A stretch of DNA of 64,000 nucleotides from Gammaproteobacteria bacterium. Its GTDB lineage: Bacteria > Pseudomonadota > Gammaproteobacteria > Steroidobacterales > Steroidobacteraceae. The stretch spans positions 74,344 through 138,343 of the forward strand of contig VGUH01000002.1 in NCBI GenBank assembly GCA_016874295.1, in the 5' to 3' direction. Positions 11,239 to 55,519 of the stretch are shown here, piece by piece; the first letter of the stretch is position 1, and each line of letters opens with the position of its first letter. The position numbers were made by a program, and so were the translations under genes. The notes below the pieces were generated by a model that was not told where the DNA came from, made no database searches, and saw only the letters and a program-made list of their open reading frames with translations.

Positions 11239-12558
11239 ATGCGCGCGACCTCGACCCTCGCATTCATCGCCCTCCTCGCTGCCGCGCCGGCCGTCGCCGA
11301 ACCCGTCGCGCTGATCGCCGATCGCGTAATCGACGGCGTGAGCGACCGCGCGCGCGAGAACACAGTCGTGGTCGTGGACGGCGAGCGTATCCTCGCGGTC
11401 GGCGACCGATCCGTGATTCCGGCGGGCGCCAGGGTGATCAACCTGCCCGGCCGGACCCTGATGCCGGGTTTCATCAATTGCCACGAGCATCCGCTGATGT
11501 ACGGCGACGACTACCAGAACGCGCACCTGCAGGCGTCGTCCGCCTACAAGGCGCTGATGGGGCTCGCCGCGTTGCAGCGCATGCTGCTTGCGGGCTGGAC
11601 ATCGGTGCGCGTCATGGGCGACGCCGACGTCTACTACGCCAACCAGGATATCCGCAGGACCGTGGATGCCGGTGTCTTCGTCGCGCCGCGCCTGACCGGC
11701 GCGGGGCATTACCTCTCAATCACGGGCGGCGGCGGCGACGTCAACTACATCTCGCCGGAGCAGAGCGTGATCGCGGACGGGCTCGTGGTCGATGGTCCCG
11801 ACGAGGTCCGTAAGGCGGTACGCGAGGAGATCAAGTTCGGATCCGACTGGATCAAGCTGCTGGTGACCGGCGCCTACCAGTCGGTCGGCGACGACCCGCG
11901 AAACGTCGCGTTCAGCCCGGAGGAACTCGAGGCCGCCGTCTCCGAGGCGAACCGTCACGATGTGCCGGTCGCCGCGCACGCCCACGCCACGGACGGCATC
12001 AAGCAGGCCGTCGCGGCCGGTGTCCGCTCGATCGAGCACGGCACCTTCATCGATGACGAAGCCATGCGGATGATGGCGGACCAGGGCACGTTCCTGGTGC
12101 CGACCATCTACGTCGGCGACTACTACAACGAGGGCGACAAGCTCCGCGCGCAGGACAAGAACGACGACTACGTCAAGAACATGCGCGGCAAGTTCCTCGC
12201 CGCCGTCGGCCGCGCGCACAAGGCGGGGGTCAAGGTCGCGGTCGGCGTCGACCTCGGCGGTTACATGACCGATCCGGTCGTCTTCGTGCGCGAGATGGCC
12301 GTGCTGGTCGAGGCCGGCATGACGCCGATGGAGGCCATCCAGGCCGGCACGCGGGTCGGCGCGGAACTGCTGCGCTGGGACGACCGACTCGGCACGGTGC
12401 AGGCCGGCAAACTCGCCGACCTCGTCGCGGTCAGCGGCAACCCGCTCGACGACATGAAGGCGCTCGAGAACGTCGAGTTCGTGATGATCGGCGGTCGCGT
12501 GGTGAAGGCGCCAGGAGTCGACACGACGCTGACCGGCCGTCTCCTGCCGCCGGACTAG
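11239..12558 (+). CDS. Secreted amidohydrolase-family metallo-hydrolase
   Basis: Start chosen at ATG 11239 (MRATSTLAFIALLAAAPAVA signal peptide); the ORF is open from 11200. HxH motif in PGFINCHEHP, later VAAHAH and SIEHG. Confidence 0.75.
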   Translation: MRATSTLAFIALLAAAPAVAEPVALIADRVIDGVSDRARENTVVVVDGERILAVGDRSVIPAGARVINLPGRTLMPGFINCHEHPLMYGDDYQNAHLQASSAYKALMGLAALQRMLLAGWTSVRVMGDADVYYANQDIRRTVDAGVFVAPRLTGAGHYLSITGGGGDVNYISPEQSVIADGLVVDGPDEVRKAVREEIKFGSDWIKLLVTGAYQSVGDDPRNVAFSPEELEAAVSEANRHDVPVAAHAHATDGIKQAVAAGVRSIEHGTFIDDEAMRMMADQGTFLVPTIYVGDYYNEGDKLRAQDKNDDYVKNMRGKFLAAVGRAHKAGVKVAVGVDLGGYMTDPVVFVREMAVLVEAGMTPMEAIQAGTRVGAELLRWDDRLGTVQAGKLADLVAVSGNPLDDMKALENVEFVMIGGRVVKAPGVDTTLTGRLLPPD

Positions 12559-13089
12559 CCGGCGCCGGCCTGCTTGGACATGGGCACGAACTCGATCGAC
12601 ACCCCGTCGCCCAGGTTCCACTGGATGGGCGCCGCGGCGATGTAGCCCCGGGCTTCGTAGAGCCGCCGCCCGGGCAGCGTTGCCATCATTTCGAAACGCG
12701 TGAAGCCGTTCACCCGGGCCGCGTTCTCGCAGTATTCCAGGATGGCCGTGCCGATGCCCCGCCGCGCAAGCGCGGGATGTACGAAGAATGCGCGGATCTT
12801 CGCGGCATCCGATCGCGGATCCAGCAGGCCGCTGTCCCGGCTCGGCTTCTGGTCGCCGCCGAACAGCGTGCGGCGCCCCCGCGAGCTGACCGCCGCACTC
12901 CACGACCACGAAGGTCCCGTCGCGCACGAGCTGCGTATCGACGCCGAATGCGCTTTGCAGCGCGCTCTCGACCTGCGCCTCGGAGTAGCAGTCCCGCGAG
13001 AGCTCCCGCGCCGAGAGCGCGATCAGCTCCCCGATGGCGCCCACATCGGCGAGATTCGCAAGTCTCAGGTGACAGCCGGCGGGCAGCAT
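12555..13089 (-). pseudogene. GNAT-family N-acetyltransferase interrupted by a frameshift/short deletion near 12876-12880
   Basis: The N-terminal frame reads MLPAGCHLRLANLADVGAIGELIALSARELS...VVVECGGQLAG. A different frame then continues RRTLFGGDQKPSRDSGLLDP..KIRAFFVHPALARRGIGTAILEYCE...FVPMSKQAGAG, which includes the acetyl-CoA RRGIG motif. Start-to-stop span is 535 nt (mod 3 = 1). The usual CGGWS block between the two parts is missing. Confidence 0.6.
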
Positions 13090-13151
13090 AGGTCGCGATG
13101 CAATCCGATTATGATGGCGCGCCGCAGTCGCGGTAAACGGGGGAGGCTGTG

Positions 13152-14039
13152 ATGCAGGCGACCGAACTCGGGCAACTCCCCTGGCTCGCGCCGACGCTCG
13201 GGGCCTTCTTCGCCTGGGGCCTCGCCCAAGGCCTGGTCAAGAAGTACATCGGCGAGGTCTCCGCGGCGAGTTTCTGCCTCTATTACGCGATCGCGAATGC
13301 CGTCGTGAATGTCGCGTTCTGGGCGATTCAGGACGCCCCGCCCGCATTCGCGCCGGAGGGCCAGCAGTTCGCGTTCTGGGGCCTGCTCGCCTACGTGCTC
13401 GACGGCATCGCGTGGATCTTCTACTACCAGTCGCTCACTTACGGCCCGATCTCAATTGTCGGCACGCTGTCGGCGGCCTACCCCGCGCTTACGGTCATCT
13501 TCGCGCGCAGCTTCCTCGGCGAGGATCTGACGCTCACGCAGGGTTTCGGCGTCGCCGCCGTGCTGATCGGCTGCCTCGCGCTCGCCTGGTCACCGCCGGA
13601 TTCGAAGACCGCGACCAATGGCCGCTGGAAAATCCTGGCCGGGATCGCGCTCGTCATCTGGGGCGTGAGCGGGACGCTGATCCGGTACGCCTACAGCTTT
13701 CCGAGCGCGCACGAGGCGAACCTCGCACTGTTCATCGCCATCGGCGGACTCGTCACGCTGGGCGCGTACGGCGTCCTCAAGGGCGCGTTGCACAGCGCCT
13801 CGCGCACGGAGTGGCTGCGCTCCGTCGGCCCGATGTCGACCATGGCACTGGGCAGCCTGCTGGTCGCGATCGCGTACAAGCATGGCCCGGCGTCGATCGT
13901 GACGCCGCTCGCGGGCGCCTATCCGGTCGTGACGCTCGCATTCGCCTGGGCGGTGCTGAAGGAGCGGCCGGCGCGGCTGCAATGGGGCGGCATCGCGCTC
14001 GTGCTGGTCGGGATGGTCCTCACGACCGCAGTCACATGA
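13152..14039 (+). CDS. EamA/DMT-superfamily transporter
   Basis: About 295 aa and roughly 10 hydrophobic helices in two EamA-like halves. GGGAGG lies 5 nt upstream of ATG 13152; GTG 13149 is also possible. Confidence 0.7.
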   Translation: MQATELGQLPWLAPTLGAFFAWGLAQGLVKKYIGEVSAASFCLYYAIANAVVNVAFWAIQDAPPAFAPEGQQFAFWGLLAYVLDGIAWIFYYQSLTYGPISIVGTLSAAYPALTVIFARSFLGEDLTLTQGFGVAAVLIGCLALAWSPPDSKTATNGRWKILAGIALVIWGVSGTLIRYAYSFPSAHEANLALFIAIGGLVTLGAYGVLKGALHSASRTEWLRSVGPMSTMALGSLLVAIAYKHGPASIVTPLAGAYPVVTLAFAWAVLKERPARLQWGGIALVLVGMVLTTAVT

Positions 14040-14073
14040 CTCAGGCGCCCTGACGATCGCCGCATTGCCCGGC

Positions 14074-15164
14074 TCACTTCGTCACCACGTACCAGTTGTT
14101 CTGGATGTCATGCGCAAGGCGGTGCGTCTTGATCGCGCGGAAACCCGCCTTGTTCAGATACTCGCGTGTCCTTTCTTCGCCCCACATGGCACCCAGCCCT
14201 TCCCCGCCTTGCGCCAGCGATACGGTCATGCAATGCATGCACGAGATCGTGTAGAGAAATGTCCCGATCGGATGTTCGATGTCCTTTTCCACGTGGCTCG
14301 TGCCGCTGATGTCCTGCATGAGATAAGCGCCGTCGGACTTCAAGGTGCGACAGATGCCCTTGAGCACGTTGAGCGGTTGGCCCTGGTCGTGTATTGCGTC
14401 GAACGTTGTCACGAAATCGAATGCCTCAGGCTCGGCAGTCGTGTGGAAGGCGCTGAGATCCGCGGCAATGAAGTCGACGTTCTTCAGGCCGGCCTCCGTC
14501 GCCCTGGCTCTAGCATACTCCGTGGCTTCGCGAGACAGATCCATGCCGACGAAGCGGCTTCGCGGATAGAGCGCGGCAAGCCTCAGGAGGATGCGGCCGC
14601 GGCCGCAACCGGCGTCGAGCATCCGGATGCCTCTCGCGAGCCGCTCTTTCAGCCCCGGCACGAGCGGCACGATGTGCGCCTCGAGTGACGAGAGAACCGA
14701 CTGTCCGCTGTCCTCCGCCATCACCTCATGGAAGCGCGAGAACTTTTCATAGGGCACACCACACCCTTGCTGAAGCACTCGACGATGTCGTCCTCCACGC
14801 AACCCATCACAGCGATATACTGCCCGAATACCGCCATATTGTCGGCCGCGGCTGCCCGTGTGAGGAACGCGGCATGTTCCGCCGGCAACGCGTAGCGGTT
14901 GCCGGCCGGATCGTACTCAACCACGTCGCTGGTCACCATCGCGCCGAGCCACTCCCGAACATAACGTTCGTTCAGTCCCGCGCGGGCTGCGATCTCTTCC
15001 GAGCGTTCCGGCGGCGACCGACTCATGACGTCGAACAGCCCGGTACGGTGGCCGACGGAAACCATCAAACACAGGGCGCCGTTGTTCAGCGCAGTCAGCA
15101 TCTTTCCCGCGAACGCCTCTGCCTTGGTCCGGTCGATGCGGGACTGCCGCGCTTCCTCCGACAT
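14074..15164 (-). pseudogene. Class-I SAM-dependent methyltransferase with N-terminal winged-helix/dimerisation domain, split by a 1-nt frameshift near 14757-14766
   Basis: ATG 15164 follows an AGGAGGAAGT RBS. The N-terminal frame ends ...VEDDIVECFSKGVVCPMKSS*. The next frame continues ..GCGVPYEKFSRFHEVMAEDSGQS...MLDAGCGRGR (SAM motif I). Span is 1091 nt (mod 3 = 2). One extra base in the ggtgtggtgtg tract would restore ECFSKGGGVPYEKF. Confidence 0.6.
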
Positions 15165-15392
15165 GACTTCCTCCTCCCTGACCGCATGGATCAACCATGC
15201 CACCCGGCTTCCGCGCTGAGCGGGCCACGCGAGGCGCATGACAGCCGCCTGCGGCACCCGCCAACAAGTGTTTTACGGGGAATATAACGCCTCGTTAAAC
15301 GGCGCACGACGCCCGCAACAGGCCCCGAATGACAAGTGGCGGCCTTTGCAGGCATCCTACGCAGCTATTTTTAGGCCCGGAGCCACCGAATC

Positions 15393-17084
15393 ATGCCGCC
15401 GTCGAAGGGAAGCCTCAGCAACATCGAGATCGCCCAGCAAGCCCGCATGAAGCCAATCGTGCCGCTCGCGAAGGAGCGGCTCGGCATCCCGGAAGAGCAC
15501 CTCTCCCCCTACGGCCACTACAAGGCCAAGGTCTCCCTCGATTACTGCACGCACCTCGAGGGCAAGAAGGACGGCAAGCTGATTCTCGTCACCGCCATCT
15601 CCCCCACCCCGGCGGGCGAGGGCAAGACGACGATGACCGTCGGCCTCGGCGATGCGCTGAACAGGATCGGCAAGAAGGCCATGATCTGCCTGCGCGAACC
15701 TGCGCTCGGCCCGGTGTTCGGCATGAAGGGCGGCGCGGCGGGTGGCGGATACTCCCAGGTCGTGCCGATGGAGGACATCAACCTCCACTTCACCGGGGAC
15801 TTCTCGGCGATCGCGCTCGCGAACAACCTGCTCGCGGCGATGATCGACAACCATATCCACCACGGCAACGCCTGCGGCTTCGACGTGCGCCGGATCACCT
15901 GGCGCCGGGTCGTGGACTGCAATGACCGTGCGCTGCGCGATATCACGGTCGGGCTCGGCGGGCCGGGCAACGGCTATCCGCGCCAGGACGGCTTCGATAT
16001 CGTCGCCGCCTCGGAGGTCATGGCGATCTTCTGCCTGGCGACCAGCCTCAAGGACCTCAAGGAGCGGCTCGGCAAGATCGTGGTCGGCTACACGCGCGAC
16101 CAGAAGCCGATCCACGCGCGTGATATCAAGGCCCATGGCGCGATGGCGGCGCTCCTGAAGGACGCGCTCGCGCCGAACCTAGTGCAGACGCTCGAGAACA
16201 ACCCGGCCATCATCCATGGCGGCCCGTTTGCGAACATCGCGCACGGCTGCAACTCGGTGATGGCGACGAAAACGGCCCTCAAGCTCGCTGACTACGTCGT
16301 GACGGAAGGTGGCTTCGGCGCCGACCTGGGCGCCGAGAAGTTCGTGGATATCAAGTGCCGCAAGGCGGGTCTCGTGCCGGACGCGGCGGTCATCGTTGCA
16401 ACCGTGCGCGCGATCAAGTATCACGGCGGCGTCGAGGTCCCGGATCTCGGCAGGGAGAACCTGAACGCCCTGAAGGCGGGCATCTCGAATCTGGACCGGC
16501 ACATCGACAACGTGCGCGACGTCTGGGGCCTGCCGTGCCTGGTGGCGATCAACCATCGCGCCGAAGACAGCGCGGCTGAGCTCAACTGGCTGCAGGAGCG
16601 AGCCACTCGCCACGGCGTCAAGGTCATCATCGCCAAGCATTACGCCGAAGGCGGCAAAGGCGCGACGATCGTCGCAAGGGAAGTCGTCGAACTCTGCTCA
16701 CACCCGAACTACTTCAGATTTACCTACGACGAGCAGGAAACGCTCTGGGACAAGATGAGGGCGGTTGCCACCAAGATCTACGGCGCATCCGAAATCACGG
16801 CCGACAGCAAGGTGCGCGGTCAGATCAAGCAGCTCCAGAAGTCCGGCTACGGCCATTACCCGGTCTGCGTGGCGAAGACCCAGTACTCCTTCTCGACCGA
16901 TCCGAAGCTGCGCGGCGCGCCGCACGGGCACGTCGTGAACATCCGCGAGGTGCGGCTCGCCGCCGGCGCGGAGTTCATCGTGATGATCTGCGGCGACATC
17001 ATGACGATGCCGGGCCTGCCGGTGACCCCGGCGGCCAACAACATCGACGTCTCGGACGACGGAAAGATTACCGGGCTGTTCTGA
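15393..17084 (+). CDS. fhs: Formate--tetrahydrofolate ligase
   Basis: 563 aa. [19 protein letters not shown]-loop, canonical length and C-terminus. Confidence 0.95.
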
Positions 17085-17091
17085 GCCGCGC

Positions 17092-17799
17092 TCAGCCGCG
17101 CATCCGCTGGCCCTGCGGATCGACGAGCGCCCCGGCGCTGCGCACCGCCGGTTGGCGCTCGCCGATCAGCTCGACGGCGAAGCCGGTTGTCTCATTCGCG
17201 ACGGTCTTGTCGACGTAGCCAAGCGCGATCGACTTGCCGACCGTGTGCCCGTAGCCGCCTGACGTCACCCAGCCGACGACCTGATCGCCGTGCCAGATCG
17301 GCTCGTCCCCGATCGCGTCCGCGTCGTCCGCATCCACCACCAGCGTGATCAGCTTGCGCGCGCCGCCGCTCGCCTGCTCCGCGACCGCGGCCGCCTTGCC
17401 GATGAAGTTGGGCTTGTCGAGGTGCACGAAGCGGCCGAGGCCAGCCTCGTACGGCCCGTAGATCGGGCGGAACTCGCGCGCCCAGTTGCCGAAACTCTTC
17501 TCCAGCCGCAGCGCATTGAGCGCGCGTCCGCCGAAGTTGCGCAGGCCATGGGGCTTGCCGGCCGCGTGCAGCAGGTCGTACAGGGCGCGCAGGTATTCGG
17601 GCGCGACCCACAGCTCGTAGCCGAGCTCGCCGGTGAACGACACGCGGCCGACGCGCGCCGGGATCATGCCGACGTTCATCTGCGCGAAGGACAGGAACGG
17701 GAACGTGGCGGTCGACAGGTCCCGGTCCACCAGCGGTTGCAGCGCGTCGCGCGACTTCGGGCCGGCGACCGACAGGCCGAGGACTTCCATCGCGCAGGG
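17092..17799 (-). pseudogene. C-terminal fragment (about 235 aa) of a GcvT-domain FAD oxidoreductase (dimethylglycine/sarcosine dehydrogenase type)
   Basis: LSVAGPKSRDALQPLVDRDLS..FPFLSF...RVSFTGELGYELW...GGRALNALRLEKSF...GWVTSGGYGHTVGKSIALGYV is the aminomethyltransferase folate-binding and C-terminal barrel region. The roughly 550-aa FAD N-terminal part expected for this family is absent. Confidence 0.7.
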
Positions 17800-17804
17800 G
17801 CGCA

Positions 17805-18776
17805 GGCGCGACCCGCAGCATCGGCCAGTTCTCGACCCTCTATGGCGGGATCGAGGACATGGTCGTTGGCCTCGAGGCGGTGTTCGCCGACGGCACCGTG
17901 ACCCGGATCAAGAACGTGCCGCGCCGCGCGGTCGGGCCGGACATCCGCCACGTCGTGATCGGCAACGAAGGCGCGCTGTGCTTCATCACCGAAGTCACGG
18001 TGAAACTGTTCCCGTTCCTGCCCGAGAACAACGCCTTCGTCGGCTGGACGCTGAAGTCCATGCGCCGGGGCTTCGAGGCGCTGCGCGAGGTCATCGTCGC
18101 CGGCTACCGCCCGTCAGTCGCGCGCCTGTACGACCCGCCGGACGGTGCGTTCCACTTCGGGAAGTTCGCGGCCAAGGACGACTGCGTGCTGCTGTTCATG
18201 GCCGAGGGCCCGGCAGGCATCGTCAAGGCGACCGTGGAAGGGATCCGGGAGATCGTCGCCCGGTTCCCGGAATGCCGGCCGGTCGACCCGCATCACCTCG
18301 CGGAGTGGTTCGCCGACCTTAACTGGGGCCCAAACAAGATCGCCAACGAGCGCAGGGAAATCCTCGCGACGCGGTCCATGGGCCGCACCACGGAAGTCTC
18401 CGCCGACTGGAGCACGATCTGCGACCTGTACGAGAACGCGCTCAAGCGGCTGCGGGCCGAGATGCCGGATATCACGATGGCGGGCGGGCACAGTTCGCAC
18501 GCGTACATCAACGGCACGAACATGTACTTCGTGTACTACTACGACGTGAAATGCCCGCCCGAGGAAGAAGTGGCCCGATACCGCACCGAGATCAACCGCA
18601 TCATCTGCGAGGAAACGCTGAAGCTCGGCGGGTCCGTGGTCCATCACCACGGCATGGGCAAGGCGCACACGCCGTGGGTCCGGGAGGAATACGGGAGTTC
18701 CTACTACATCCTCGAGCGGCTGAAGCGCGCCTTCGACCCGAACGAAGTCATGAACAAGGCTTGCATCATCCCGTAG
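17805..18776 (+). pseudogene. C-terminal fragment of an FAD-linked oxidase (GlcD / alkyl-DHAP-synthase-like)
   Basis: Family similarity starts abruptly at ATRSIGQFSTLYGGIEDMVVGLEAVFADGTV..GPDIRHVVIGNEGALCFITEVTVKLFP, which is the end of the FAD-binding PCMH domain. It continues through the C-terminal cap (HHHGMGK). Roughly 150-200 N-terminal residues are missing. Confidence 0.7.
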
Positions 18777-19397
18777 TCAGGGCTTGATGACGTGGTCGAC
18801 CCAGTCGTCGCACAGCGCGGCAGCATCCGCCGGGCGGATGCTCCGGGGGTCGAGGCAGAGCTGCAGCCACAGTCCGTCCAGGAAGGCCGTGAGGCCGGTG
18901 ACGGCGGTGTCGAGATCCACGCTCGCGACGCCGCGCGAGCGGGCGAGGTCGGACAGCAGCCTGCCGAGCACCTCGCCGTAGCCGCGGCCCTCCGCGTCGC
19001 GCACGGCGCGCATCTCGGGGGAGACCTGCACCAGGCTCCAGTACACGACCCAGGCGGTCAGCACCTGCGGGTCGAGATTCGGCCCGGAGAAGAACGAGTC
19101 GAAATAGGCGCGCAGCCGCGCACGCGGGTCGGCGCCGGCGGCGGCGACCGCCCGCTCGAAATCCGCGGCGAGCCGCCGGCTGAATGTCCGGTAGCTCTCG
19201 GCGACCAGCGAGTCCTTGTTGGGGAAGTGGTGATTGATGAGGCCGATCGAGACGCCCGCCTCCGCCGCGATGCGGCGCACCGAGAGCCCGTCGTGCCCGT
19301 AGCGCTTCAGGCTCTCGATCGCGGCGTCCACGAGCGCCTCGCGCCGGTCGCTCGCGACCTGGCGCTCGTAGCGGGGCTTGCGTGCCGCGTTGCTCAC
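18777..19397 (-). CDS. TetR/AcrR-family transcriptional regulator (BetI-like context)
   Basis: 206 aa. HTH region LSVRRIAAEAGVSIGLINHHFPNKDSL. Divergent from the MttB-family gene. Confidence 0.85.
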   Translation of the reverse strand: MSNAARKPRYERQVASDRREALVDAAIESLKRYGHDGLSVRRIAAEAGVSIGLINHHFPNKDSLVAESYRTFSRRLAADFERAVAAAGADPRARLRAYFDSFFSGPNLDPQVLTAWVVYWSLVQVSPEMRAVRDAEGRGYGEVLGRLLSDLARSRGVASVDLDTAVTGLTAFLDGLWLQLCLDPRSIRPADAAALCDDWVDHVIKP

Positions 19398-19458
19398 CGG
19401 CGCCGCCGCGCCCGAAAATGGGCGATCCCGCGATGGCCGGCACGGATAGGTGCATTCA

Positions 19459-19480
19459 TTGTTGAACGATCGTACAATAA
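19459..19480. promoter_or_regulatory. Imperfect 22-bp palindrome, candidate TetR operator in the TetR/mttB divergent promoter
   Basis: TTGTTGAACGATCGTACAATAA. 18 of 22 positions are self-complementary around a perfect ACGATCGT core. It lies in the 116-bp intergenic region. Confidence 0.35.
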
Positions 19481-19513
19481 GGGGTCTCCAGCGTCAACGG
19501 ACGAGGCGGTGAA

Positions 19514-21055
19514 ATGAGACCGACGATCCAGATCCTCGAGCCCGCGCAGATCACCGCGGTGCTCGACGAAGCCAAGCGGATCATGGCCGAGGTCGGCATG
19601 GACATCCGCGGCGCGAAGCTGCGCCAGCGCCTGATCGACGCGGGGTTGCCGACCGACCCGAAAGGCCGCGTGCTGTTCCCCACCGAGATCGTCAACCGCG
19701 CGATCGCGACCGCGCCGAAATCGTTCACGCTCTACAACCGCGACGGCGAGCCGCACGCGAACATCGGCGGCTGGAACGTCCACTTCATACCCGGCTCGAG
19801 CGGCCTCAAGATCATGGATCACCGCACGGGCGAGACGCGGCTCGCGAACTCGACCGACTTCATCGAGTACGCGCGCCTGTGCGACGGGCTGGCGCACATC
19901 CCCTACCTCGCGACGGCGTTCTCGACGAATAACGACATCGAACCGCAGGTCTCGGACGCCTGGCGCCTGTACATGGTGCTGACCACCACCAAGAAGCCGG
20001 TCGTCTCCGGCGCCTTCGGCGAGCACGGCGTGCCGCGCATGGTCGAGATGATGCAGCTGTTCCGCCGCGACCGCGCCGAGCTCATTGCGAAGCCGATGTC
20101 GATCTTCACCATCACCGCGACCGGCAATTTCCGCTTCGGCGAGGACTCCTGCCAGAACCTGCTCGACTGCGTCGAGGCCGGCATCCCTGTCGAGATCGTG
20201 CCGGTCACGCTCATGGGCCTGATCGCGCCGGTCACCCTGATCGGCGCCCTCGTCTTCCACTGCGTGGACGTGCTGACCGGCATCACCATGGCCCAGGTCG
20301 TCAAGCCCGGCGCGCCGGTGCTGTTCGGCGGTGCACCCGCGACCTTCCACATGCGCGCGGCGAGCGCGCCGATGGCGGCGATCGAGGCGCAGCGCCTGAA
20401 TGTCGGCTACGTCGCGATCGCGAAGTCCCTCGGCCTGCCGACCCAGGCCTACATGGCGCTCTCGGACGGCAAGTTCCTCGATGCCCAGGCGGGCGCGGAA
20501 ACGATGTCGAGCGCGCTGCTCGCCGCGCTCGCCGGCGTGAACTCGGTGTCGGGGCCCGGCATGCTCGACTTCGTGCTGACCTTCAGCCTGCCGAAGCTCC
20601 TGTTCGACAACGAGGTCTGCGGGCAATGCCTGAACTTCGTGCGCGAGACGCAGGTGCTCGAGGACATCCCGGCGCGCAGCCTGGTGGACGAGGTGCGCGC
20701 GCATGATCACCTGATCACCTCGCCGCACACGCTGAAGTACTGGCCGCAGGAGCTGTACCTGACCGACCCGGTAATCGACCGCGAGAACCGCGAAACCTGG
20801 GTCAAACAGGGCTCGAAGGACCTGCAGGCGCGCGCGGCCGAGCAGGTCGAGAAGCGCCTCGCCGCCTACGTGCAGATCGAGACCGATCCCGCGGCGGACG
20901 CGGAGATGCGCCGCATGATCGTCGCGGGCTTCAAGGACCAGAAGGAACTTCCCGCTCTGCCGCCGCCGCCCGAGCACGCCGCCGGCGAGGCCGCGGCTCC
21001 GGGGCGCCGCCGCACCGGGCGCCGGCCGCAGGCCGCGGCGCGCAGCGAGTGCTAG
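19514..21055 (+). CDS. Trimethylamine-methyltransferase (MttB) superfamily protein, non-pyrrolysine type
   Basis: 513 aa, no in-frame TAG. The N-terminus [31 protein letters not shown] and overall TIM-barrel-length match fit MttB/MtgB-like proteins. The last 35-40 aa are a Pro/Ala/Arg-rich tail. Confidence 0.75.
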
Positions 21056-21068
21056 CATCACGGACCCG

Positions 21069-21530
21069 ATGAACGAGCAAAGCATTCTCGCGATCGTCGA
21101 GCGCCACCGCCATCGCGACGGCCCGCTGATCGAGGTCCTGCACGAGGTGCAGGAGCAATTCGGCTGCATCCCGGCCGGCGCCGTCGCGGCCATCGCGCGC
21201 GGGCTCAATTTGTCACGCGCAGAAGTGCACGGCGTCGTGAGCTTCTATCACCATTTCCGGACCCGGCCGGCGGGCCGGCACCTGCTGCAGGTCTGCCGCG
21301 CGGAATCCTGCCAGGCGGCGGGCGGCCGGGCGATCGAGGCGCATGCGAAGCAGCGGCTCGGCATCGACTTCGGCCAGACGACCGCAGACGGACGTTTCAC
21401 ACTCGAGGCCGTCTACTGCCTCGGCCTGTGCGCCTGCTCTCCCGCCGCGATGCTGGACCACGAAGTTCACGGCCGCGTGACGCGCGAGAGCCTCGATGCG
21501 CTCGTCGACGCCGCCGCGAAGGCTGGGTGA
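21069..21530 (+). CDS. fdsG: NAD-dependent formate dehydrogenase gamma subunit (NuoE-like 2Fe-2S)
   Basis: 153 aa. Cys pattern C..ESC...C...C (VCRAESCQA ... CLGLCACSP), position ahead of fdsB. Confidence 0.85.
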   Translation: MNEQSILAIVERHRHRDGPLIEVLHEVQEQFGCIPAGAVAAIARGLNLSRAEVHGVVSFYHHFRTRPAGRHLLQVCRAESCQAAGGRAIEAHAKQRLGIDFGQTTADGRFTLEAVYCLGLCACSPAAMLDHEVHGRVTRESLDALVDAAAKAG

Positions 21531-23080
21531 TGAACGTCACGGTCTGGGTGCCGGGCGACGCCGGCGCGCTCGCGCTCGGCGCACAGGCGACGGCGCAGGC
21601 GCTCGTGGCCGGGGCCCGCGCCGCGGGCACGGAAGTCCGGCTGCGCCGCAACGGTTCGCGCGGGCTCTACTGGCTCGAGCCGCTCATCGAGGTCGAGACG
21701 CCCGCCGGGCGAGTCGCCTACGGACCGGTGCGCGCCTCGGACGTGCCGGCGCTGCTCGCGAGCGGCCTGCTCGATGGCCGCGCGCACCCGCTGCGGCTCG
21801 GCGACATCGAGCAGCACCCCTGGCTCGCGACGCAGCAACGCCTGACCTTCGCGCGGGTCGGGCGCATCGATCCGCTCGATCTCGCGGCGTTTCGCGCGGC
21901 GGGCGGCTACCGGGGCCTCGCGCGCGCGCTCGAACTCGGCCCTGAGGCGACGGTGAACGAGGTGCTGGAGTCGGGCCTGCGCGGCCGCGGCGGCGCGGCA
22001 TTCCCGACCGGCATCAAGTGGCAGACGGTGCTGCGCCAGCCTCCCGGCCGGAAGTACATCACCTGCAACGCCGACGAAGGCGACTCGGGCACGTATTCCG
22101 ACCGCATGCTGATGGAAGGCGACCCGTTCACGCTGATCGAGGGCATGACGATCGCGGGCGTCGCCGTCGGCGCGACCAGGGGCTACATCTACCTGCGCGT
22201 CGAGTACCCGCACGCCTTCAGGGTCCTGAACGCGGCGATCGCGAAAGCGCGCGAGGCGGGGGGTCTGCTCGGCGCGGACGTAATGGGCAGCGGCCTGGCA
22301 TTCGACCTCGAGGTGCGGCTCGGCGCCGGCGCCTATATCTGCGGCGAGGAAACCTCGATGCTCGAGAGTCTCGAGGGCCGGCGCGGCGAGGTCCGCGTGC
22401 GCCCGCCGCTGCCCGCCGAGAAAGGCCTGTTCGGCGCGCCGACGATCGTCAACAACGTCATCACGCTCGCGACCGTGCCGACCATCCTCGCGAACGGCGC
22501 GACCGCCTACAAGGATTACGGCCAGGCGCGCTCGCGCGGCACGCTGCCGCTGCAGCTCGCCGGCAACATCCGCCGCGGCGGGCTGGTCGAGCGCGCCTTC
22601 GGCCTCACGGTGCGCGAGCTGCTCGAGGACTACGGCGGCGGCTCGATGAGCGGGCGGCCGATCCGCGCGGTGCAGATCGGCGGGCCGCTCGGCGCCTACC
22701 TGCCGGTCTCGCAATTCGACACGCCGCTCGAGTACGAGGCGCTCTCCGCGATCGGCGCGCTGCTCGGGCACGGGGGCGTGGTCGCCTTCGACGACACGGT
22801 CGACATGCTGGAGATGGCGCGCTACGCCATGGAATTCTGTGCGATCGAGTCCTGCGGCAAGTGCACGCCCTGCCGGATCGGCTCGGTCCGGGGGGCGGAA
22901 GCCCTGGCCGCGGTCGGGCGCGGCGAAGATCGTGACCGCCAGCTTGCCCTGGTCGAGGAACTCTGCGATACGATGCTGAATGCGTCCCTGTGCGGCCTGG
23001 GGGGCATGACCCCCTTTCCCGTGCAAAGCGCCATGAAGCACTTCGCAGAGGATTTCAGGGGCCGGACGCGAGGAGGATAG
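21530..23080 (+). CDS. fdsB: NAD-dependent formate dehydrogenase beta subunit (NuoF-like, FMN/NAD/4Fe-4S)
   Basis: ATG 21530 overlaps the fdsG stop (ATGA). GLRGRGGAAFPTG, ADEGDSG, YICGEETS.LESLEG, ESCGKCTPCR motifs. Confidence 0.9.
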   Translation: MNVTVWVPGDAGALALGAQATAQALVAGARAAGTEVRLRRNGSRGLYWLEPLIEVETPAGRVAYGPVRASDVPALLASGLLDGRAHPLRLGDIEQHPWLATQQRLTFARVGRIDPLDLAAFRAAGGYRGLARALELGPEATVNEVLESGLRGRGGAAFPTGIKWQTVLRQPPGRKYITCNADEGDSGTYSDRMLMEGDPFTLIEGMTIAGVAVGATRGYIYLRVEYPHAFRVLNAAIAKAREAGGLLGADVMGSGLAFDLEVRLGAGAYICGEETSMLESLEGRRGEVRVRPPLPAEKGLFGAPTIVNNVITLATVPTILANGATAYKDYGQARSRGTLPLQLAGNIRRGGLVERAFGLTVRELLEDYGGGSMSGRPIRAVQIGGPLGAYLPVSQFDTPLEYEALSAIGALLGHGGVVAFDDTVDMLEMARYAMEFCAIESCGKCTPCRIGSVRGAEALAAVGRGEDRDRQLALVEELCDTMLNASLCGLGGMTPFPVQSAMKHFAEDFRGRTRGG

Positions 23081-25915: not shown

Positions 25916-25928
25916 GGGCGGCCGTTCG

Positions 25929-26138
25929 ATGAACGTCCAGCGCCTGGTCGCGATGGCGAACGACATCTCGAACTTCTTCGGTTCCGACCCCGACCCGGCT
26001 TCGGCCGCCGAACAGGTGGCGAATCACCTGAAGAAGTTCTGGGAGCCGCGCATGCGCGAGGAGATCCGCCGCTACGTGAGCACGGGCGGCGAGGGCCTCT
26101 CATCGATCGCGATACAGGCGGTGAAGAAACTGGCGTAG
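25929..26138 (+). CDS. fdsD: Formate dehydrogenase delta subunit
   Basis: 69 aa; LVAMANDISNFF...VANHLKKFWEPRMR matches the FdsD family pattern. Follows fdsA after 13 nt. Confidence 0.8.
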   Translation: MNVQRLVAMANDISNFFGSDPDPASAAEQVANHLKKFWEPRMREEIRRYVSTGGEGLSSIAIQAVKKLA

Positions 26139-26190
26139 CCACCCTCGCGCGCCTGGCCGGCCGGGAACCCTCGCTCGTTCCGCCGGAACT

Positions 26191-27027
26191 TAGAACCTAT
26201 CTCAAAATCGCGGAACTGCGGTGGCGCGAGTAGTATTCATGCGTACTGCGCCTGAGCGACGAACAGTGGGAGCGGATCCGGAAGCACTTTCCGGAGGAGC
26301 ACTATCCTGATGATCGGCCCGGCCGCAAGCCGATTGCTGCGCGGCGCGTGCTGGAAGCGGTGCTGTGGATCCTCAATACCGGTGCCCAGTGGCACCTGCT
26401 TCCGCAGTCCTACCCGAACTACAAGACGGTGCACCGCCGCTTTCAGCAGTGGTGCCGGGACGAAGTGATCCGTGCGGCGCTGACCGATCTGGCGAACAGC
26501 TTGCGCGAGGCGGGCGCGATCGACGAGTCGGAGTGCTTCATCGATGCGAGCTTTGCCTCGGCCAAGGGCGGCGGCGGCGAGGTGGCGCCAACGAAACGCG
26601 GAAAAGGCGTGAAAATCATGGCGATTGTCGATCGTCACGGCCTGCCGCTCGCGGTCACGACCCATGCCGCAAACCATCATGAAGTCACGCTGGTGCAGTT
26701 GACGTTCGACTTCTACATGATCGAGGCGCAGCCGGAGAATCTGATCGGCGACAAGGCGTACGATAGCGACCCGCTCGACGAGCAGCTGCGCCAGAAGGGC
26801 ATCGAGATGATCGCGCCGCACAAGTCCAACCGCGTGCGCGCCAGGACTCAGGACGGTCGCCGGCTGCGGCGGTATCAGCGGCGCTGGATCGTCGAACGCA
26901 TCTTCGCCTGGATGCAATGGCAACGGCGGCTGCTGGTGCGCTGGGAGTTTCACTCGATCAACTTTCTCGGCTTCGTGCACCTGGCGGCCCTGTGTATCCT
27001 GCTCAGACAGTTTTGAGATAGGTTCTA
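26191..27027 (+). mobile_element. IS5-family insertion sequence (837 bp) with perfect 17-bp terminal inverted repeats
   Basis: Left end is TAGAACCTATCTCAAAA (26191-26207); right end is TTTTGAGATAGGTTCTA (27011-27027), its exact reverse complement. The outer TA of each end could instead be a 2-bp target duplication. A single DDE transposase frame lies inside, with its stop codon within the right IR. Confidence 0.85.
26234..27016 (+). CDS. IS5-family DDE transposase (open frame; start codon uncertain)
   Basis: Frame reads ..VLRLSDEQWERIRKHFPEE...AVLWILNTGAQWHLLP...IDASFASAKGGG...LIGDKAYDSD...RRWIVERIFAWMQWQRRL (DDE triad regions). The conserved N-terminal LSDEQWERI block is in frame from 26243. 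The only upstream ATG (26239) is +1 out of frame, and the first in-frame ATG is 26348. Confidence 0.75.
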   Translation, partial: YSCVLRLSDEQWERIRKHFPEEHYPDDRPGRKPIAARRVLEAVLWILNTGAQWHLLPQSYPNYKTVHRRFQQWCRDEVIRAALTDLANSLREAGAIDESECFIDASFASAKGGGGEVAPTKRGKGVKIMAIVDRHGLPLAVTTHAANHHEVTLVQLTFDFYMIEAQPENLIGDKAYDSDPLDEQLRQKGIEMIAPHKSNRVRARTQDGRRLRRYQRRWIVERIFAWMQWQRRLLVRWEFHSINFLGFVHLAALCILLRQF

Positions 27028-27153
27028 GTCACTTCGCTCGGGCACCCGGCCGGCCAGGTGCGCATGAAGCGCCGCGGCACATGGCCTCCGGCGTGCGTGA
27101 CGTGCCCGCGGCATCGGCGCGCGCGATACGCTGCGGTCGTTTCAGGCGCGCCA

Positions 27154-41328: not shown

Positions 41329-41405
41329 TGGTGGCTAGGGAGAGAATCGAACTCTCGACCCCGGGGTTATGAATCCCGTGCTCTAACCAGCTGAGCTACC
41401 TAGCC
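41329..41405 (-). tRNA. tRNA-Met (anticodon CAT), elongator-like
   Basis: Reverse complement is GGCTAGGTAGCTCAGCTGGTTAGAGCACGGGATTCATAACCCCGGGGTCGAGAGTTCGATTCTCTCCCTAGCCACCA. 7-bp acceptor stem, GCTC/GAGC D stem, loop TTCATAA, GAGAG/CTCTC T stem, encoded CCA. Paired 1-72 argues against an initiator. Lysidine-modified tRNA-Ile2 cannot be excluded by eye. Confidence 0.85.
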
Positions 41406-41494: not shown

Positions 41495-42280
41495 TCAGGG
41501 CGGCTCGGCAAAGCTCCTGAGCGAGTGCCACTCGATCACTTCCTGCAGCAGCACGCGCTCGGTCTTGAGCACGATGTGCTCCAGGCTGTTCCAGGTCAGG
41601 CAGGCGGCGACCTCCGCGCGGTTCGCGGTCAGCAGCGCACGCATTTCCTGGTAACGCGCCACGCGGCGCTGCAGATCGTTGATCGAGATGATCGAGATCA
41701 GCGAGGCCGCGACCACCGGCAGCGAGATCTGCAGGAACACGAAAGCCGTCTCCTCCACCCAAAGCGGAACGGGCGGAACGGCGATGCCGGCGGTGCGGGT
41801 CACGGCGTAGCTCGCAATGCAGGCGACCGCGAGCAGCGTCGCGACCCAGAATCCCGCCATCAGCCGCCGGTAGACCGGCAGCGCCTTGTTGACCTGCCGG
41901 TTGAAGTAGGCGATCTGGTCGTCGATGCGCTTGGCGAGGTAGACCGGCTTGAATTCCTCGATCGGCAGGCTGCGCGTGGCCGAGGAGCGCGTGTGCAGGA
42001 TGTACAGCGCGCGGGTCAGCCGCCGCGCGCCCACGAGGTCGAGGTCCTGCAGCAGCGGCGCGGCGCGCGGCAGGCCCCAGGTCGCGAGCGCCGAGCGGCA
42101 GAATTCCGCCGCCAGACGGCAGCGCACCCAGCTGTGGTGCGAGCGCAGGTGCCTTCTCAGCGCGAGCGCCGCGACCAGGCCGAAAGTGACGAACACGAGC
42201 TTCGCCCAGGGCAGCGCCAGCATGTGCAGCGCGTAAGCGACGGTCGCGGTCGCGATCAGCGTCGCCATCACGTGCGACAT
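41495..42280 (-). CDS. Four-TM membrane protein made of two tandem 2TM modules, SLATT-like (SMODS and SLOG-associating 2TM effector)
   Basis: Module 2 is YLAKRIDDQIAYFNRQVNKALPVYRRL, then TM (WVATLLAVACIASYAV), TM (FVFLQISLPVVAASLISII), then NDLQRRVARYQEMRAL, the pattern I associate with DUF4231/SLATT. Module 1 is ..GAPHFRRL, then TM (VMATLIATATVAYALHML), TM (LVFVTFGLVAALAL), then SWVRCRLAAEFCRS. Start uncertain: ATG 42280, or GTG 42340 overlapping the upstream gene. Confidence 0.6.
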   Translation of the reverse strand: MSHVMATLIATATVAYALHMLALPWAKLVFVTFGLVAALALRRHLRSHHSWVRCRLAAEFCRSALATWGLPRAAPLLQDLDLVGARRLTRALYILHTRSSATRSLPIEEFKPVYLAKRIDDQIAYFNRQVNKALPVYRRLMAGFWVATLLAVACIASYAVTRTAGIAVPPVPLWVEETAFVFLQISLPVVAASLISIISINDLQRRVARYQEMRALLTANRAEVAACLTWNSLEHIVLKTERVLLQEVIEWHSLRSFAEPP

Positions 42281-42294
42281 GACCGTGGCAACGA

Positions 42295-43014
42295 TCAGGC
42301 GCCGGAAGTGCGGGGCGCCCTGGCTCGCTGCCAGTCGCACTTCTCCTGGAAGCGCAGCACGGAATCGGGCGCCGCGAAGGGGTTCTCGCCGCCGCTGAAC
42401 GGCGCCTCCGGCAGGGCGTTCAGGTCCTCGAGGATCGCATCGCCGGCCTCGAGCTTGTCCCAGTTCTCGCGCCGCATCGCGCGCGTCGCGGGGTCGATGA
42501 TCAGCACCGGCTTGCCGATCGACTTGGCGTACTGCACGACCTGGCCCGTGCCGCCCTTGCCGCGCGGGTCGTTGCCGTCCCAGACGGCGAGCAGCAGGTC
42601 GCAACCGTTGACTGTTTCGATGCCGCAATCGAGGTAGCTGTCCTCGCGATCGCCGTACTCGTGGATGGTGCGCATGTGGTCGGCGGACTCGAGCATCGCC
42701 TCGACCGACGCCCATTCTTCCGGCGCGAAGTCGCGCGCGAATTCCGGGCGCGCGAGCGGCAGGATGCAGTGCCAGGACATGCCGGCCGCGCGCGCTTCGC
42801 TCGCGAACAGCTGGTCGCCGCCGCGCGCGATCGACGACAGCGCGATCCACTCGCCCGGGACCTCGCGGACCAGGAACGCGAGCGCCTCGCGGATCGCGAG
42901 CGACGCACCGCCGGGATCGGTGAGGTGGCGATGCCCGGTGAAGCCGACGACGTTGAACAGCGGTAGCCGGCCGGCGGCGGCGGCGGGCAGCGGTGGTGTT
43001 GCGGTATCGGTCAT
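42295..43014 (-). CDS. SLOG-superfamily (SMF/DprA-LOG, YpsA-like Rossmann fold) protein, predicted nucleotide-ligand binding
   Basis: 239 aa. VVGFTGHRHL (strand 1 plus Gly loop), SSIARGGDQLFASEA (GxD motif as in DprA/YpsA), CDLLLAVWDGNDPRGKGGTGQVVQYAKSIGKPVLII (C-terminal GGT motif). Confidence 0.6.
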   Translation of the reverse strand: MTDTATPPLPAAAAGRLPLFNVVGFTGHRHLTDPGGASLAIREALAFLVREVPGEWIALSSIARGGDQLFASEARAAGMSWHCILPLARPEFARDFAPEEWASVEAMLESADHMRTIHEYGDREDSYLDCGIETVNGCDLLLAVWDGNDPRGKGGTGQVVQYAKSIGKPVLIIDPATRAMRRENWDKLEAGDAILEDLNALPEAPFSGGENPFAAPDSVLRFQEKCDWQRARAPRTSGA

Positions 43015-43022: not shown

Positions 43023-43406
43023 TCAGGTCGTCCCGGCGGGCGCTGCTCCGGGTTGCGGCCCCAGCGAGAATTCTCCGCTCGCGCTGAAGCGATGCGAACC
43101 CAGCTTGCCGCTCATCGAGTAGCGTATCTGGTCGGCCTGTGCCGCGTCCTTCACGCCGATCACCTGGCGCACCATGCGCAGCATCGAGACGGTAACCGGC
43201 ACCTCGACCACGGCATCGCTGAAGCCCGGGACGGTGCCACCGGCATTGCTTACGCCGGTCGCAAAGGTCTTGTCCTGCACCTCGCCTTTCTCCTGCATCG
43301 GCTCGATGCCGGCGACGGTGACCTGCAGAGGGTCCCGGGCCGCAAGCGACGCGCAGCCCGCCTGGGTCAGTGCCGCGGCCAGTGCAATGAGCATGTTGCG
43401 GATCAT
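43023..43406 (-). CDS. Small lipoprotein, LEA-type-2 (water-stress/hypersensitive-response)-like, apparently shortened
   Basis: Lipobox LTQAGC. FATGVSNAGGTVPGFSDAVVEVPVTVSML..RQ...IRYSMSGKL resembles bacterial LEA_2 lipoproteins. The segment normally between the first strand and the FATGVS block seems to be absent. Confidence 0.5.
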   Translation of the reverse strand: MIRNMLIALAAALTQAGCASLAARDPLQVTVAGIEPMQEKGEVQDKTFATGVSNAGGTVPGFSDAVVEVPVTVSMLRMVRQVIGVKDAAQADQIRYSMSGKLGSHRFSASGEFSLGPQPGAAPAGTT

Positions 43407-45146: not shown

Positions 45147-45959
45147 TTACTTCTTGCCGTCGCCCTTCCTAGCGTCCTTGCCGCCCTTGGCGGCGCCCTT
45201 CGCATCCGCAGCCGGCGCAGCGGCGCCCGCTGCGGGAGCTGCGGCCCCGGTGGCCGGCGCCGCGCCCGGTGCGCCCGGTGCGCCCGGTGCGCCAGGAACA
45301 GGAGCCGCGCCCGGCGCAGCGCCCGCAGCGGCAGCGGCCGCTGCGGCCTCGTCGACGACCGGAGCTTCCTCCTCCTCGACGCGCGGCATGTGGATCGACG
45401 CGACCGGACCGTCGCGGCCGGCAAGCAGGTCGACGAGCTCGACGCCCGCCGGCAGCCTGAGCCCGGAGAGCTTGACGACCTCGTTGATGGCGAGCCCGGA
45501 GACGTCGACCTCGACGAACTCGGGCAGGTCCTTCGGCAGGCACAGGACTTCGACGTCGTTGCGCACGTGCCCGAGCACGCCGCCCTGCTCCTTGACGCCC
45601 TTCGCCTCGGCGCCGCCCTTGAAGTGCAGCGGCACGCGCATCCTGATCTTCTCGTCCTCCAGCACGCGCTGGAAGTCGACGTGCACGATCCGGTTCCGGT
45701 ACGGGTGACGCTGCACGTCCTTGAGCACCGCGGCCTGCTGCGAGCTTCCGACCTTGAGCGCGAGGATGGTCGAATAGAAGCGCTCGTTGTCCATCAGCTG
45801 CGCGAGCTTGGTGTGATCGATGACCAGCGAGCGCGCGTCGCGCCTGCCTCCGTAGAGGATCGCCGGGACCTTGCCGAGATAACGCAGGCGGCGGCTCGCA
45901 CCCTTGCCCTGGTCTTCCCGGAACTCGGCGTCGAGTTCGAAGGAAATCTTCATGTTCAT
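45147..45959 (-). CDS. rplY: 50S ribosomal protein L25 (general stress protein Ctc form) with long Ala/Pro/Gly-rich C-terminal tail
   Basis: 270 aa. GKGASRRLR..GKVPAILYG and the two-domain Ctc body up to about residue 195, then EEEAPVVDEAAAAAAAAGAAPGAAPVPGAPGAPGAPGAAPATG...KGGKDARKGDGKK. Confidence 0.9.
   Translation of the reverse strand: MNMKISFELDAEFREDQGKGASRRLRYLGKVPAILYGGRRDARSLVIDHTKLAQLMDNERFYSTILALKVGSSQQAAVLKDVQRHPYRNRIVHVDFQRVLEDEKIRMRVPLHFKGGAEAKGVKEQGGVLGHVRNDVEVLCLPKDLPEFVEVDVSGLAINEVVKLSGLRLPAGVELVDLLAGRDGPVASIHMPRVEEEEAPVVDEAAAAAAAAGAAPGAAPVPGAPGAPGAPGAAPATGAAAPAAGAAAPAADAKGAAKGGKDARKGDGKK
45262..45293. repeat. Perfect 9-bp tandem repeat (GCGCCCGGT x3 plus a partial copy) inside the rplY tail
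   Basis: 45262-45270, 45271-45279 and 45280-45288 are identical. They encode GAPGAPGAPGA on the minus strand. Confidence 0.9.
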
Positions 45960-45971
45960 GACTCCGTTGTT

Positions 45972-46925: not shown

Positions 46926-46939
46926 GCGCTTCTCCCTAA

Positions 46940-47014: not shown

Positions 47015-47018
47015 AGTT

Positions 47019-53912: not shown

Positions 53913-53925
53913 GGCGCCCGCCCCG

Positions 53926-54633: not shown

Positions 54634-54672
54634 CGAAGCCCGTACAATGCGCCGTTACCCGGAGACCGGACG

Positions 54673-54924
54673 ATGGTCGAAAAATCCCTCGAGAATCTGC
54701 TGCTCGCCTGCCGCTGGCTGCTGGCGCCGCTCTACCTCAGCCTGATCGTGATGGTGATGTTCTCCGGCTACGAGAACTTCGTGTCGCGCATGGACGCGCA
54801 GCAGATCGCGAACGACAAGATCCTCTGGTACGTCGTCCTGCACCTGACCTTCGTCGTGTCAGCGGTGCTGCTCGGCGTGCTCGACAAGATCTCCTTCGCC
54901 GCGCACCGCAAGGAAGCAGCCTGA
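54673..54924 (+). CDS. UPF0114/YqhA-family membrane protein, only about half the usual length (83 aa)
   Basis: Reads MVEKSLENLLLACRWLLAPLYLSLIV-MVMFSGYENFVS-RMDAQQIANDKILWYVVLHLTFVVSAVLLGVLDK. The three blocks match the N-terminus, middle and C-terminus of YqhA (about 164 aa in E. coli as I recall). The two intervening segments are absent and the frame is kept. Confidence 0.6.
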   Translation: MVEKSLENLLLACRWLLAPLYLSLIVMVMFSGYENFVSRMDAQQIANDKILWYVVLHLTFVVSAVLLGVLDKISFAAHRKEAA

Positions 54925-54941
54925 ACCGGAGGATGACTCAC

Positions 54942-55519
54942 ATGCAGAAATCCCGACGCGACCTGCTGCGCGCCACGATTGGACTCGGGGCCGCGGGCGC
55001 CCTCAAGGGCGCCTGGGCAAGCGCTTTGCCGGAACCGACCCCGACTCACGAAATCGGACCGTTCAATCCAGTGATACGCTCGCTGGAGGCGGACGCCGAC
55101 CTCACACTGCTCGAGGGGCACGCTCAGCGCGCCGAGGGCCGGGTGATCCACCTGATGGGTCGCGTGCTGAATGCGCAGGGCGAGCCCGTGCCCGGCGCAA
55201 AGATCGAGATCTGGCAGGCGAACACAAAGGGCCGCTATGCACACCCGGTCGATCGCAGCCTGGCGCCTATCCGATCAACCCGATGAATCCGGTCCAGGTC
55301 CGTCCGCCGCACATCCATTTCGACGTTACCGGCAGGAATTCCCGCATCGTGACGCAGATATACTTCCCGGACGAGCCGGAAAATGAGAATGACCTGCTCT
55401 TCGGCCCGCTGAGCGACCAGGACAAGCGTGCCCTCACGGCGAGCATGTCGCCGCCAACGGCCGATCTCGAGCCGGACGCCCTGCTGGTTCGCTGGGATAT
55501 CGTCCTGGTCGGGAGCTAG
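54942..55519 (+). pseudogene. Intradiol ring-cleavage dioxygenase (protocatechuate 3,4-dioxygenase-like) with Tat signal, disrupted by an internal out-of-frame deletion near 55263-55267
   Basis: Frame 1 reads MQKSRRDLLRATIGLGAAGAL...GRVLNAQGEPVPGAKIEIWQANTKGRYAHPVDRSLAP, then stops at 55286. Another frame continues AYPINPMNPVQVRPPHIHFDVTG...TQIYFPDEPENENDLLF...WDIVLVGS. The roughly 30 aa normally between the two blocks are missing. Confidence 0.65.

Follow-up and report, generated by a model that had tools for sequence, protein, structure and literature searches.

The window analysed here, a 64,000-nucleotide (nt) stretch of contig VGUH01000002.1 (positions 74,344 to 138,343) from the Steroidobacteraceae assembly GCA_016874295.1, contains nine broken accessory loci, and all of its syntenic core genes are intact, with lengths as in relatives. 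The broken loci are a GNAT acetyltransferase, a methyltransferase, a dimethylglycine-dehydrogenase-like (DMGDH) gene, a flavin adenine dinucleotide (FAD)-linked oxidase, the transposase of an insertion sequence (IS), a SLOG-SLATT gene, a LEA_2 lipoprotein, a YqhA-family gene and an intradiol dioxygenase. Very probably this is recent, lineage-specific decay of dispensable genes, caused by relaxed selection and deletion bias in a nearly clonal population with a small genome. A preliminary description, made from the letters of the window alone, had listed eight lesions and interpreted them as deletion-biased decay of dispensable genes plus IS activity, as in early reductive evolution or under relaxed selection. 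All eight were found, with exact coordinates and sizes, and they affect the nine loci named above. The interpretation holds in part, for the deletion-biased decay: deletions hit eight of the nine loci, only dispensable genes are damaged, the sister lineage is intact and substitution rates date the damage as recent. The genes described as having textbook lengths (ychF, pth, prs, ispE, hemA, prfA, gatCAB, mreBCD, fhs and fdsGBA) are indeed as long as in relatives.

Intact orthologues or homologues were located for all nine broken loci. The most informative comparison is with a sister lineage of about 91% DNA identity, found in freshwater metagenomes from a separate study (loci L179-L182; runs X16, X18, X20 and X21). 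It carries intact GNAT, SLOG-SLATT, LEA, YqhA, DMGDH and FAD oxidase genes and an empty IS site, and every lesion that can be compared with the sister is absent from it. Read recruitment at 80% likeness over 15 kb was too noisy, with many unrelated taxa, and narrow stretches at 85-87% were used. In total, 84 kb of DNA was inspected, namely the 64-kb window and 10 kb on each side. Since the window has 69% G+C and a strong third-position bias, genes were called from codon-position G+C and not from open frames.

Lesions in the nine broken loci

The GNAT acetyltransferase pseudogene (12555..13089, reverse strand, 535 nt) was delimited by six-frame reading and by comparison with the 183-amino-acid (aa) homologue P0121 and sister contig L179. 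Alignment to P0121 shows that 17 nt are gone between 12877 and 12878, so that the CGGWSR block is lost and the frame is shifted. Contig L179 is 91% identical, differs from the window at this gene by a single 17-nt gap and is otherwise collinear, including both neighbours. The 17 nt (GGCTCCAGCCGCCGCAG) are present after position 12877 in the GNAT gene of four sister runs. The read-through product of the pseudogene had no matches in the PDB.

An Rv2258c-like S-adenosylmethionine methyltransferase pseudogene of 1091 nt was delimited by homologue comparison at 14074..15164 (reverse strand). One G has been lost from GGTGGTGGT at about 14761-14770, where most of the homologues read KGGGVPYEKF. Nearly all of the 120 homologues listed are 356-363 aa long, most of them exactly 363 aa. 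The gene is missing from the sister, in which 620 other nt stand in place of 14027-15288, and its G+C content at third codon positions (GC3) is 0.78-0.79.

Two remnants on opposite strands meet near 17.8 kb at a single junction (about 17802-17807). The DMGDH 3' remnant (17092..17802, reverse strand) retains about 230 of about 830 codons. It matches Pfam GCV_T from profile position 140 onwards as well as GCV_T_C and aligns to residues 603-821 of dimethylglycine dehydrogenases of 841-869 aa. The FAD-linked oxidase 3' remnant (17789..18776, forward strand) comprises the last 305 of 480 codons, with Pfam FAD-oxidase_C as its only domain. Full-length 480-aa orthologues are present in L176 and L101, and homology to them begins at nt 445 of the gene. 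In sister contigs, DMGDH runs on past 17802-17804 and the FAD oxidase runs on upstream of 17807.

A whole gene has been lost close by. Comparison by blastn with L176, L101, L103 and L106 revealed the scar of a Rieske (GbcA-like) oxygenase gene at 19413..19433, between a TetR regulator and MttB. The gene is present between TetR and MttB in all four of these loci, and 1146 nt of L176 correspond to 21 nt in the window. The L176 gene matches the NCBIfam family GbcA with a score under the family cutoff. The surrounding region (15393-26138) is a one-carbon and methylamine neighbourhood with fhs, an MttB-family methyltransferase, the TetR regulator and fdsGBAD. What it has lost are its enzymes of oxidative demethylation (Rieske GbcA-like and DMGDH-like); the other genes there are intact.

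The IS5-family element (26191..27027, forward strand, 837 bp) has perfect 17-bp inverted repeats and TA flanks. It is inserted in the loop of a palindrome resembling repetitive extragenic palindromic (REP) sequences (26147-26190 with 27028-27063). Its transposase frame (26243-27016) covers positions 4-258 of the 258 positions of NF033580 and is thus full length, and its first codon is GTA. Homologues of 257 aa start with MLRLSD or VLRLSD (ATG or GTG) at exactly this codon, and the defect is therefore best described as a substitution of the start codon to GTA and not as a deletion, in an element that is structurally complete as judged from its ends and its profile match. The preliminary description was correct that a canonical start is lacking and incorrect in counting the element among genes damaged by small deletions. 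Truncation at the 5' end, as suggested by Pfam, is ruled out by the perfect inverted repeats and the NF033580 match; a 1-nt frameshift just past an ATG is ruled out by the position at which the homologues begin.

In the sister lineage the IS site is empty. The evidence for IS activity is thin: the 84 kb contain a single element with a dead start codon, covered by unitigs about 1.8 times as deep as those of the flanks. Several long contigs end at the element. A comparison of the IS DNA with plasmids gave weak partial matches at most. 'Empty-site' unitigs at this locus in Lake Tanganyika runs probably represent further copies of the REP-like palindrome and not an uninserted allele. A second REP-like palindrome is located at 27155-27223, and its unitig depth reaches about 540x in Tanganyika and unrelated freshwater runs.

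The fused SLOG-SLATT gene (41495..43014, reverse strand) is split by the loss of one G after 42328, so that the suspected 1-nt interruption of this pair is real. The gene is a single open reading frame of about 500 aa in L007 and L009, and the extra G is present after 42328 in three sister runs. In the SLATT part, the window has two copies of the 9-nt unit GATCGAGAT at 41680, whereas other Tanganyika assemblies have three, and a 9-nt duplication at 41765-41773 is private to the window. These copy-number changes are slippage polymorphism within a pseudogene. A tRNA-Met gene (41329-41405) directly adjoins SLOG-SLATT, and in L007 and L009 a TIR-like gene with a FISYSH motif comes after it. The locus resembles a small tRNA-associated island for defence or conflict.

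The adjacent LEA_2 lipoprotein gene (43023..43406, reverse strand) has a 90-nt in-frame deletion at about 43280-43284, between CGAGG repeats. Compared with the L006 orthologue, 30 codons are gone (the intact homologue has 170 aa), and the Pfam match spans positions 22-81 of 98. The sister has the missing block, and a loose end of its sequence at 43280 encodes GLELRLLVKL.

The YqhA/UPF0114 remnant (54673..54924, forward strand) has two in-frame deletions, of 138 nt at 54738|54739 and of 123 nt at 54795|54796. Alignment to the 168-aa L009 orthologue and to Escherichia coli YqhA shows that 46 and 41 codons are gone, which leaves 83 aa of the usual 167-168 aa and lowers the TIGR00645 score from 219 to 69 bits. 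The deleted segments correspond to two membrane segments, and both blocks are encoded by loose ends of the sister. A 10-nt direct repeat was considered as the cause of the first deletion and rejected; the junction does not use the repeat, and microhomology there is about 1 nt. With their conserved segments missing, the LEA and YqhA remnants have presumably lost their function. In L007, a relative whose HemA is 83% identical, a separate YqhA remnant of 31 aa (positions 17187-17282 of L007) lies beside iorA, which points to independent YqhA decay in another lineage.

The intradiol dioxygenase pseudogene with a twin-arginine translocation (Tat) signal (54933..55519, forward strand) has lost about 25-30 codons and is frameshifted at CCTGGCGCC (55259-55267). 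It aligns to residues 60-121 of PcaH-beta (238 aa) in one frame and to residues 152-229 in another, with residues 122-151 gone. The sister lacks the gene and joins 54915 to 55518 via 22 nt. The GC3 of the pseudogene is 0.79-0.83. The YqhA and dioxygenase relics alone occupy the mtgA-hsp33 interval of the window, which measures 0.9 kb compared to 5-5.7 kb in relatives. In L006, L007, L009 and L010 the interval holds iorAB and/or metH-metF together with YqhA and a DUF4440 gene; none of iorAB, metH-metF and DUF4440 is present at the window locus (54634-55515).

Authenticity, age and spectrum of the lesions

The best relatives by HemA are Steroidobacteraceae metagenome-assembled genomes (MAGs) with 88%, 83% and 78% identity. 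Exact-protein matches with MttB, ychF and PpiB link the window to JGI, ENA and Logan assemblies of lake-water metagenomes; the same look-up with fhs gave no match. The JGI sample numbers belong to a depth series from Lake Tanganyika, and long contigs were obtained from casts at 100, 150, 250 and 400 m. The source of the window is thus a nearly clonal Steroidobacteraceae population in Lake Tanganyika water at 100-400 m. At the contig level, long contigs from different samples have 0-4 mismatches per 14-21 kb, which indicates low population diversity; the exception is clustered end-of-contig mismatches in two short, chimeric-looking contigs. The Tanganyika study includes two candidate source Steroidobacteraceae MAGs with G+C contents of 0.690 and 0.696, sizes of 2.37 and 2.96 Mb and completeness of about 94%.

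Long contigs from three pipelines and at least 13 samples are 99.9-100% identical to the window and contain the same split genes. In eight Tanganyika runs (four per region), single unitigs at a depth of 23-213x bridge the lesions of GNAT, the methyltransferase, YqhA and the dioxygenase without differences or gaps, and no alternative joint or indel across these four lesions was seen in the unitigs of the eight runs. The whole set of indel differences between assemblies consists of 9 nt in the L25 tail, the two 9-nt changes in SLATT and a -1/+1 pair in hsp33. At the level of contigs and unitigs, the lesions lie in the DNA of the organism and not in one assembly.

The hsp33 pair (56207-56213, reverse strand) is private to the window and compensated, changing LQFEG to LPVQG; QFE is kept in five other assemblies and in relatives, and the pair reflects strain variation or else a minor error of the source assembly. 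The L25/Ctc tail (45262-45270) has an Ala/Pro-rich C-terminus that varies by 9 nt among assemblies, giving proteins of 265, 268 or 270 aa. The closest GTDB MAG, L006, in contrast to the window, has frameshifts in ychF (3228-4321) and a shortened prfA (11369-12331), which look like consensus indel errors. Gaps at 7867-8503 of the window were considered as a further lesion and proved to contain two intact small genes. A 94-nt tRNA-Arg called by ARAGORN at 28202-28295, within the coding sequence of rlmL, is probably a false positive.

The ratio of nonsynonymous to synonymous substitution (dN/dS) dates the damage. Compared with relatives, the remnants have values of 0.11-0.26 and their intact neighbours 0.10-0.30. 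For the FAD oxidase remnant dN/dS is 0.158, versus 0.154 for the same segment between two intact orthologues. GNAT has a value of 0.23, compared with 0.17-0.21 for its flanks; of the 48 differences in GNAT, 29 fall on third positions. Remnants and neighbours thus do not differ, and purifying selection therefore acted nearly throughout their divergence and the lesions are recent.

Four loci carry internal deletions, five in all, of 17-138 nt; two loci have each lost a single base, one multi-kb deletion has fused the remnants of two genes, and one start codon is lost. At least ten deletion events stand against a single IS insertion and a single 9-nt tandem duplication private to the window. Alignment to intact orthologues gives a junction microhomology of 0 nt for GNAT, 1-2 nt for YqhA and 5 nt for LEA. 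At the dioxygenase junction, for which no intact orthologue was recovered, a putative 9-nt repeat is suggested by the string CCTGGCGCC, which makes sense in either frame. Such junctions are compatible with slippage or ordinary illegitimate deletion. Of the five internal deletions, three have a length divisible by three, which is not significant alone; the same tendency has been reported for pseudogene deletions elsewhere (PMC6054270).

The native genes have a GC3 of 0.90-0.98, as opposed to 0.78-0.83 for the methyltransferase and the dioxygenase. As both are also absent from the sister, they look like acquired genes that failed and not like decayed ancestral genes.

The density of broken loci is high. 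Nine of about 59 loci in the window are broken, with P = 0.0025 at a pseudogene background of 5% and 6e-5 at 3%; with the flanks included, nine of about 82 are broken (P = 0.02 at 5%). These P values overstate the case because the window was flagged for its density. The nine relics occupy 6.9 kb, and all lesions fall within four variable loci, together 11% of the window. A rough tally of truncated genes was also made for the relatives' loci and discarded as uninformative, being dominated by start-codon miscalls and limited to shared families, mostly core ones.

Competing explanations

The reading that we favour is decay under relaxed selection. Since the split from the sister, on a short branch, spontaneous mutations inactivated nine dispensable loci, and at least one whole gene, the Rieske oxygenase, was removed besides. 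Seven of the broken loci are native and two, the methyltransferase and the dioxygenase, look like recent acquisitions that failed. The mutations were presumably not purged because selection on the affected genes is relaxed, and the visible damage is mostly deletion, presumably because bacterial mutation is biased in that direction.

Several observations weigh against this reading. In the flanking 10 kb on each side, with about 23 genes, no obviously broken gene was found by gene call and Pfam content. The coding density of the candidate MAGs is normal (0.93), a figure in which gene callers do count pseudogene fragments as genes. The dN/dS of core genes (0.10-0.30) is not raised when measured over long branches, which would mask a recent change. 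Three of the five internal deletions (LEA and both in YqhA) are in frame. Finally, rare intact alleles could escape notice in data made up of contigs and unitigs alone.

The strongest competitor is ordinary steady-state turnover of accessory genes, in which the window is a local outlier noticed post hoc and no special reductive phase occurred. We lean against it, while granting it an appreciable chance. Free-living bacteria carry a few percent of pseudogenes, and these concentrate in variable loci and in horizontally acquired genes that failed. The restriction of the lesions to four variable loci agrees with this, as do the 20 kb of clean flanks, the normal core dN/dS and coding density, the separate YqhA remnant of L007 and the methyltransferase, dioxygenase and IS, which are lineage-specific and low in GC3. 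On the other hand, the observed density exceeds a 5% background in the window as well as in the window with flanks, seven lesions affect native genes that are intact in the sister, and all lesions stem from one short recent interval. Moreover, a single gene of 500 nt (YqhA) was hit by two separate deletions, and whole genes were lost too.

Genome-wide reductive evolution is plausible. In its favour are the small MAG sizes, the clonality and the additional whole-gene losses; the two failed acquisitions, the flanks free of obviously broken genes and the normal dN/dS of the core speak for ordinary turnover. A more specific version, namely a post-bottleneck population at or below the oxycline in early genome-wide reduction that sheds oxygen-dependent catabolic enzymes first, is possible but doubtful.

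Selection may instead have driven the loss of oxygen-dependent catabolic enzymes that are useless at or below the oxycline, which we consider unlikely. Oxygen-requiring enzymes are prominent among the losses, with the Rieske oxygenase and the intradiol dioxygenase as well as DMGDH and the FAD-linked oxidase; casts at 100-400 m yielded the long contigs, and the adjacent oxygen-independent MttB, fhs and fds genes are intact. However, nothing connects oxygen with the lesions in GNAT, SLOG-SLATT, LEA, YqhA and the methyltransferase, the window retains intact genes for other FAD oxidoreductases, and the pattern is equally expected from neutral loss where selection is relaxed.

That these genes work normally in their shortened or split form in this lineage, for example by programmed frameshifting or as mini-proteins, is very improbable. 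The in-frame deletions of YqhA and LEA and the low dN/dS of the remnants would be compatible with retained function, but the low dN/dS spans a long branch and is explained by recent lesions, and conserved cores are gone (CGGWSR of GNAT, two membrane segments of YqhA, residues 122-151 of PcaH-beta). The sister and more distant relatives all have the full forms, which also disposes of the suggestion that these lengths and frames are usual in the lineage. Reading of both 1-nt sites revealed no slippery motif, with no formal motif scan run.

The chance that the lesions are assembly or consensus errors, the alternative raised in the preliminary description as an indel-prone assembly, is negligible at the level of contigs and unitigs: the window-private hsp33 pair and 9-nt duplication do show that the source differs slightly from other assemblies, but all lesions on the list recur unchanged in assemblies of metaSPAdes type, of MEGAHIT type and from unitigs of many samples, most measure 17-138 nt and none lies in a homopolymer run, the only two 1-nt lesions are both confirmed by sister contigs or homologues, and the core genes are untouched, unlike ychF and prfA of the indel-prone L006.

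Significance and comparison with known systems

Free-living bacteria purge pseudogenes fast, and lineages with many recent relics beside intact orthologues in a close sister are uncommon. In such lineages the spectrum of spontaneous deletions can be measured and niche shifts can be dated. If the density holds genome-wide, the population would be a natural experiment on the shrinkage of planktonic genomes in an ancient stratified lake; it would help to separate post-bottleneck drift from selection and show which functions are lost first. If reduction at the oxycline is the correct reading, this would be a rare non-host-associated genome reduction caught in progress. If the genome-wide load is the usual few percent, the window is a well-documented ordinary cluster of decaying accessory genes.

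Pseudogene-rich genomes in early reduction include those of Shigella, Yersinia pestis, Salmonella Typhi and Sodalis glossinidius. The leaf-nodule Candidatus Burkholderia symbionts are likewise pseudogene-rich and in early reductive evolution (PMC6054270). The window shares with such bacteria the recent lineage-specific loss of dispensable genes with an intact core, the excess of deletions over insertions, many multiple-of-three deletions, intact orthologues in close free-living relatives and low diversity. It differs from them in that there is no sign of a host or of vertical transmission, and no IS bloom is seen in the 84 kb inspected, which hold one IS, at about two copies.

Failed horizontal transfers were reportedly identified as a major source of prokaryotic pseudogenes by Liu, Harrison, Kunin and Gerstein in Genome Biology in 2004. 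The methyltransferase, the dioxygenase and the IS resemble such cases, being absent from the sister, lower in GC3 and affected by one lesion each. Seven of the nine broken loci do not, as they are native and have intact syntenic orthologues in the sister or in relatives.

Classical streamlining is known from SAR11 and Prochlorococcus, and streamlined plankton genomes are almost free of pseudogenes. Soil relatives of the present lineage have larger genomes than 2.4-3.0 Mb. Like reduced plankton, the population is free-living and pelagic, nearly clonal and has a small genome (2.4-3.0 Mb, candidate MAGs). Unlike in streamlined plankton, relics are still visible, which speaks for a very recent process or drift and not for completed streamlining. 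Genome reduction of free-living plankton under low effective population size has been described for early Prochlorococcus (PMC10837832).

The deletional bias of bacterial mutation is well documented (Mira, Ochman and Moran 2001; Kuo and Ochman 2009, PMC2817411). Here, too, nearly all events are deletions, their sizes span 1 nt to more than 1 kb, and microhomology is little or none; nothing differs in kind. The pattern as a whole has already been described for early reduction and failed transfers, and the window adds one more cleanly documented case, from a free-living freshwater lineage.

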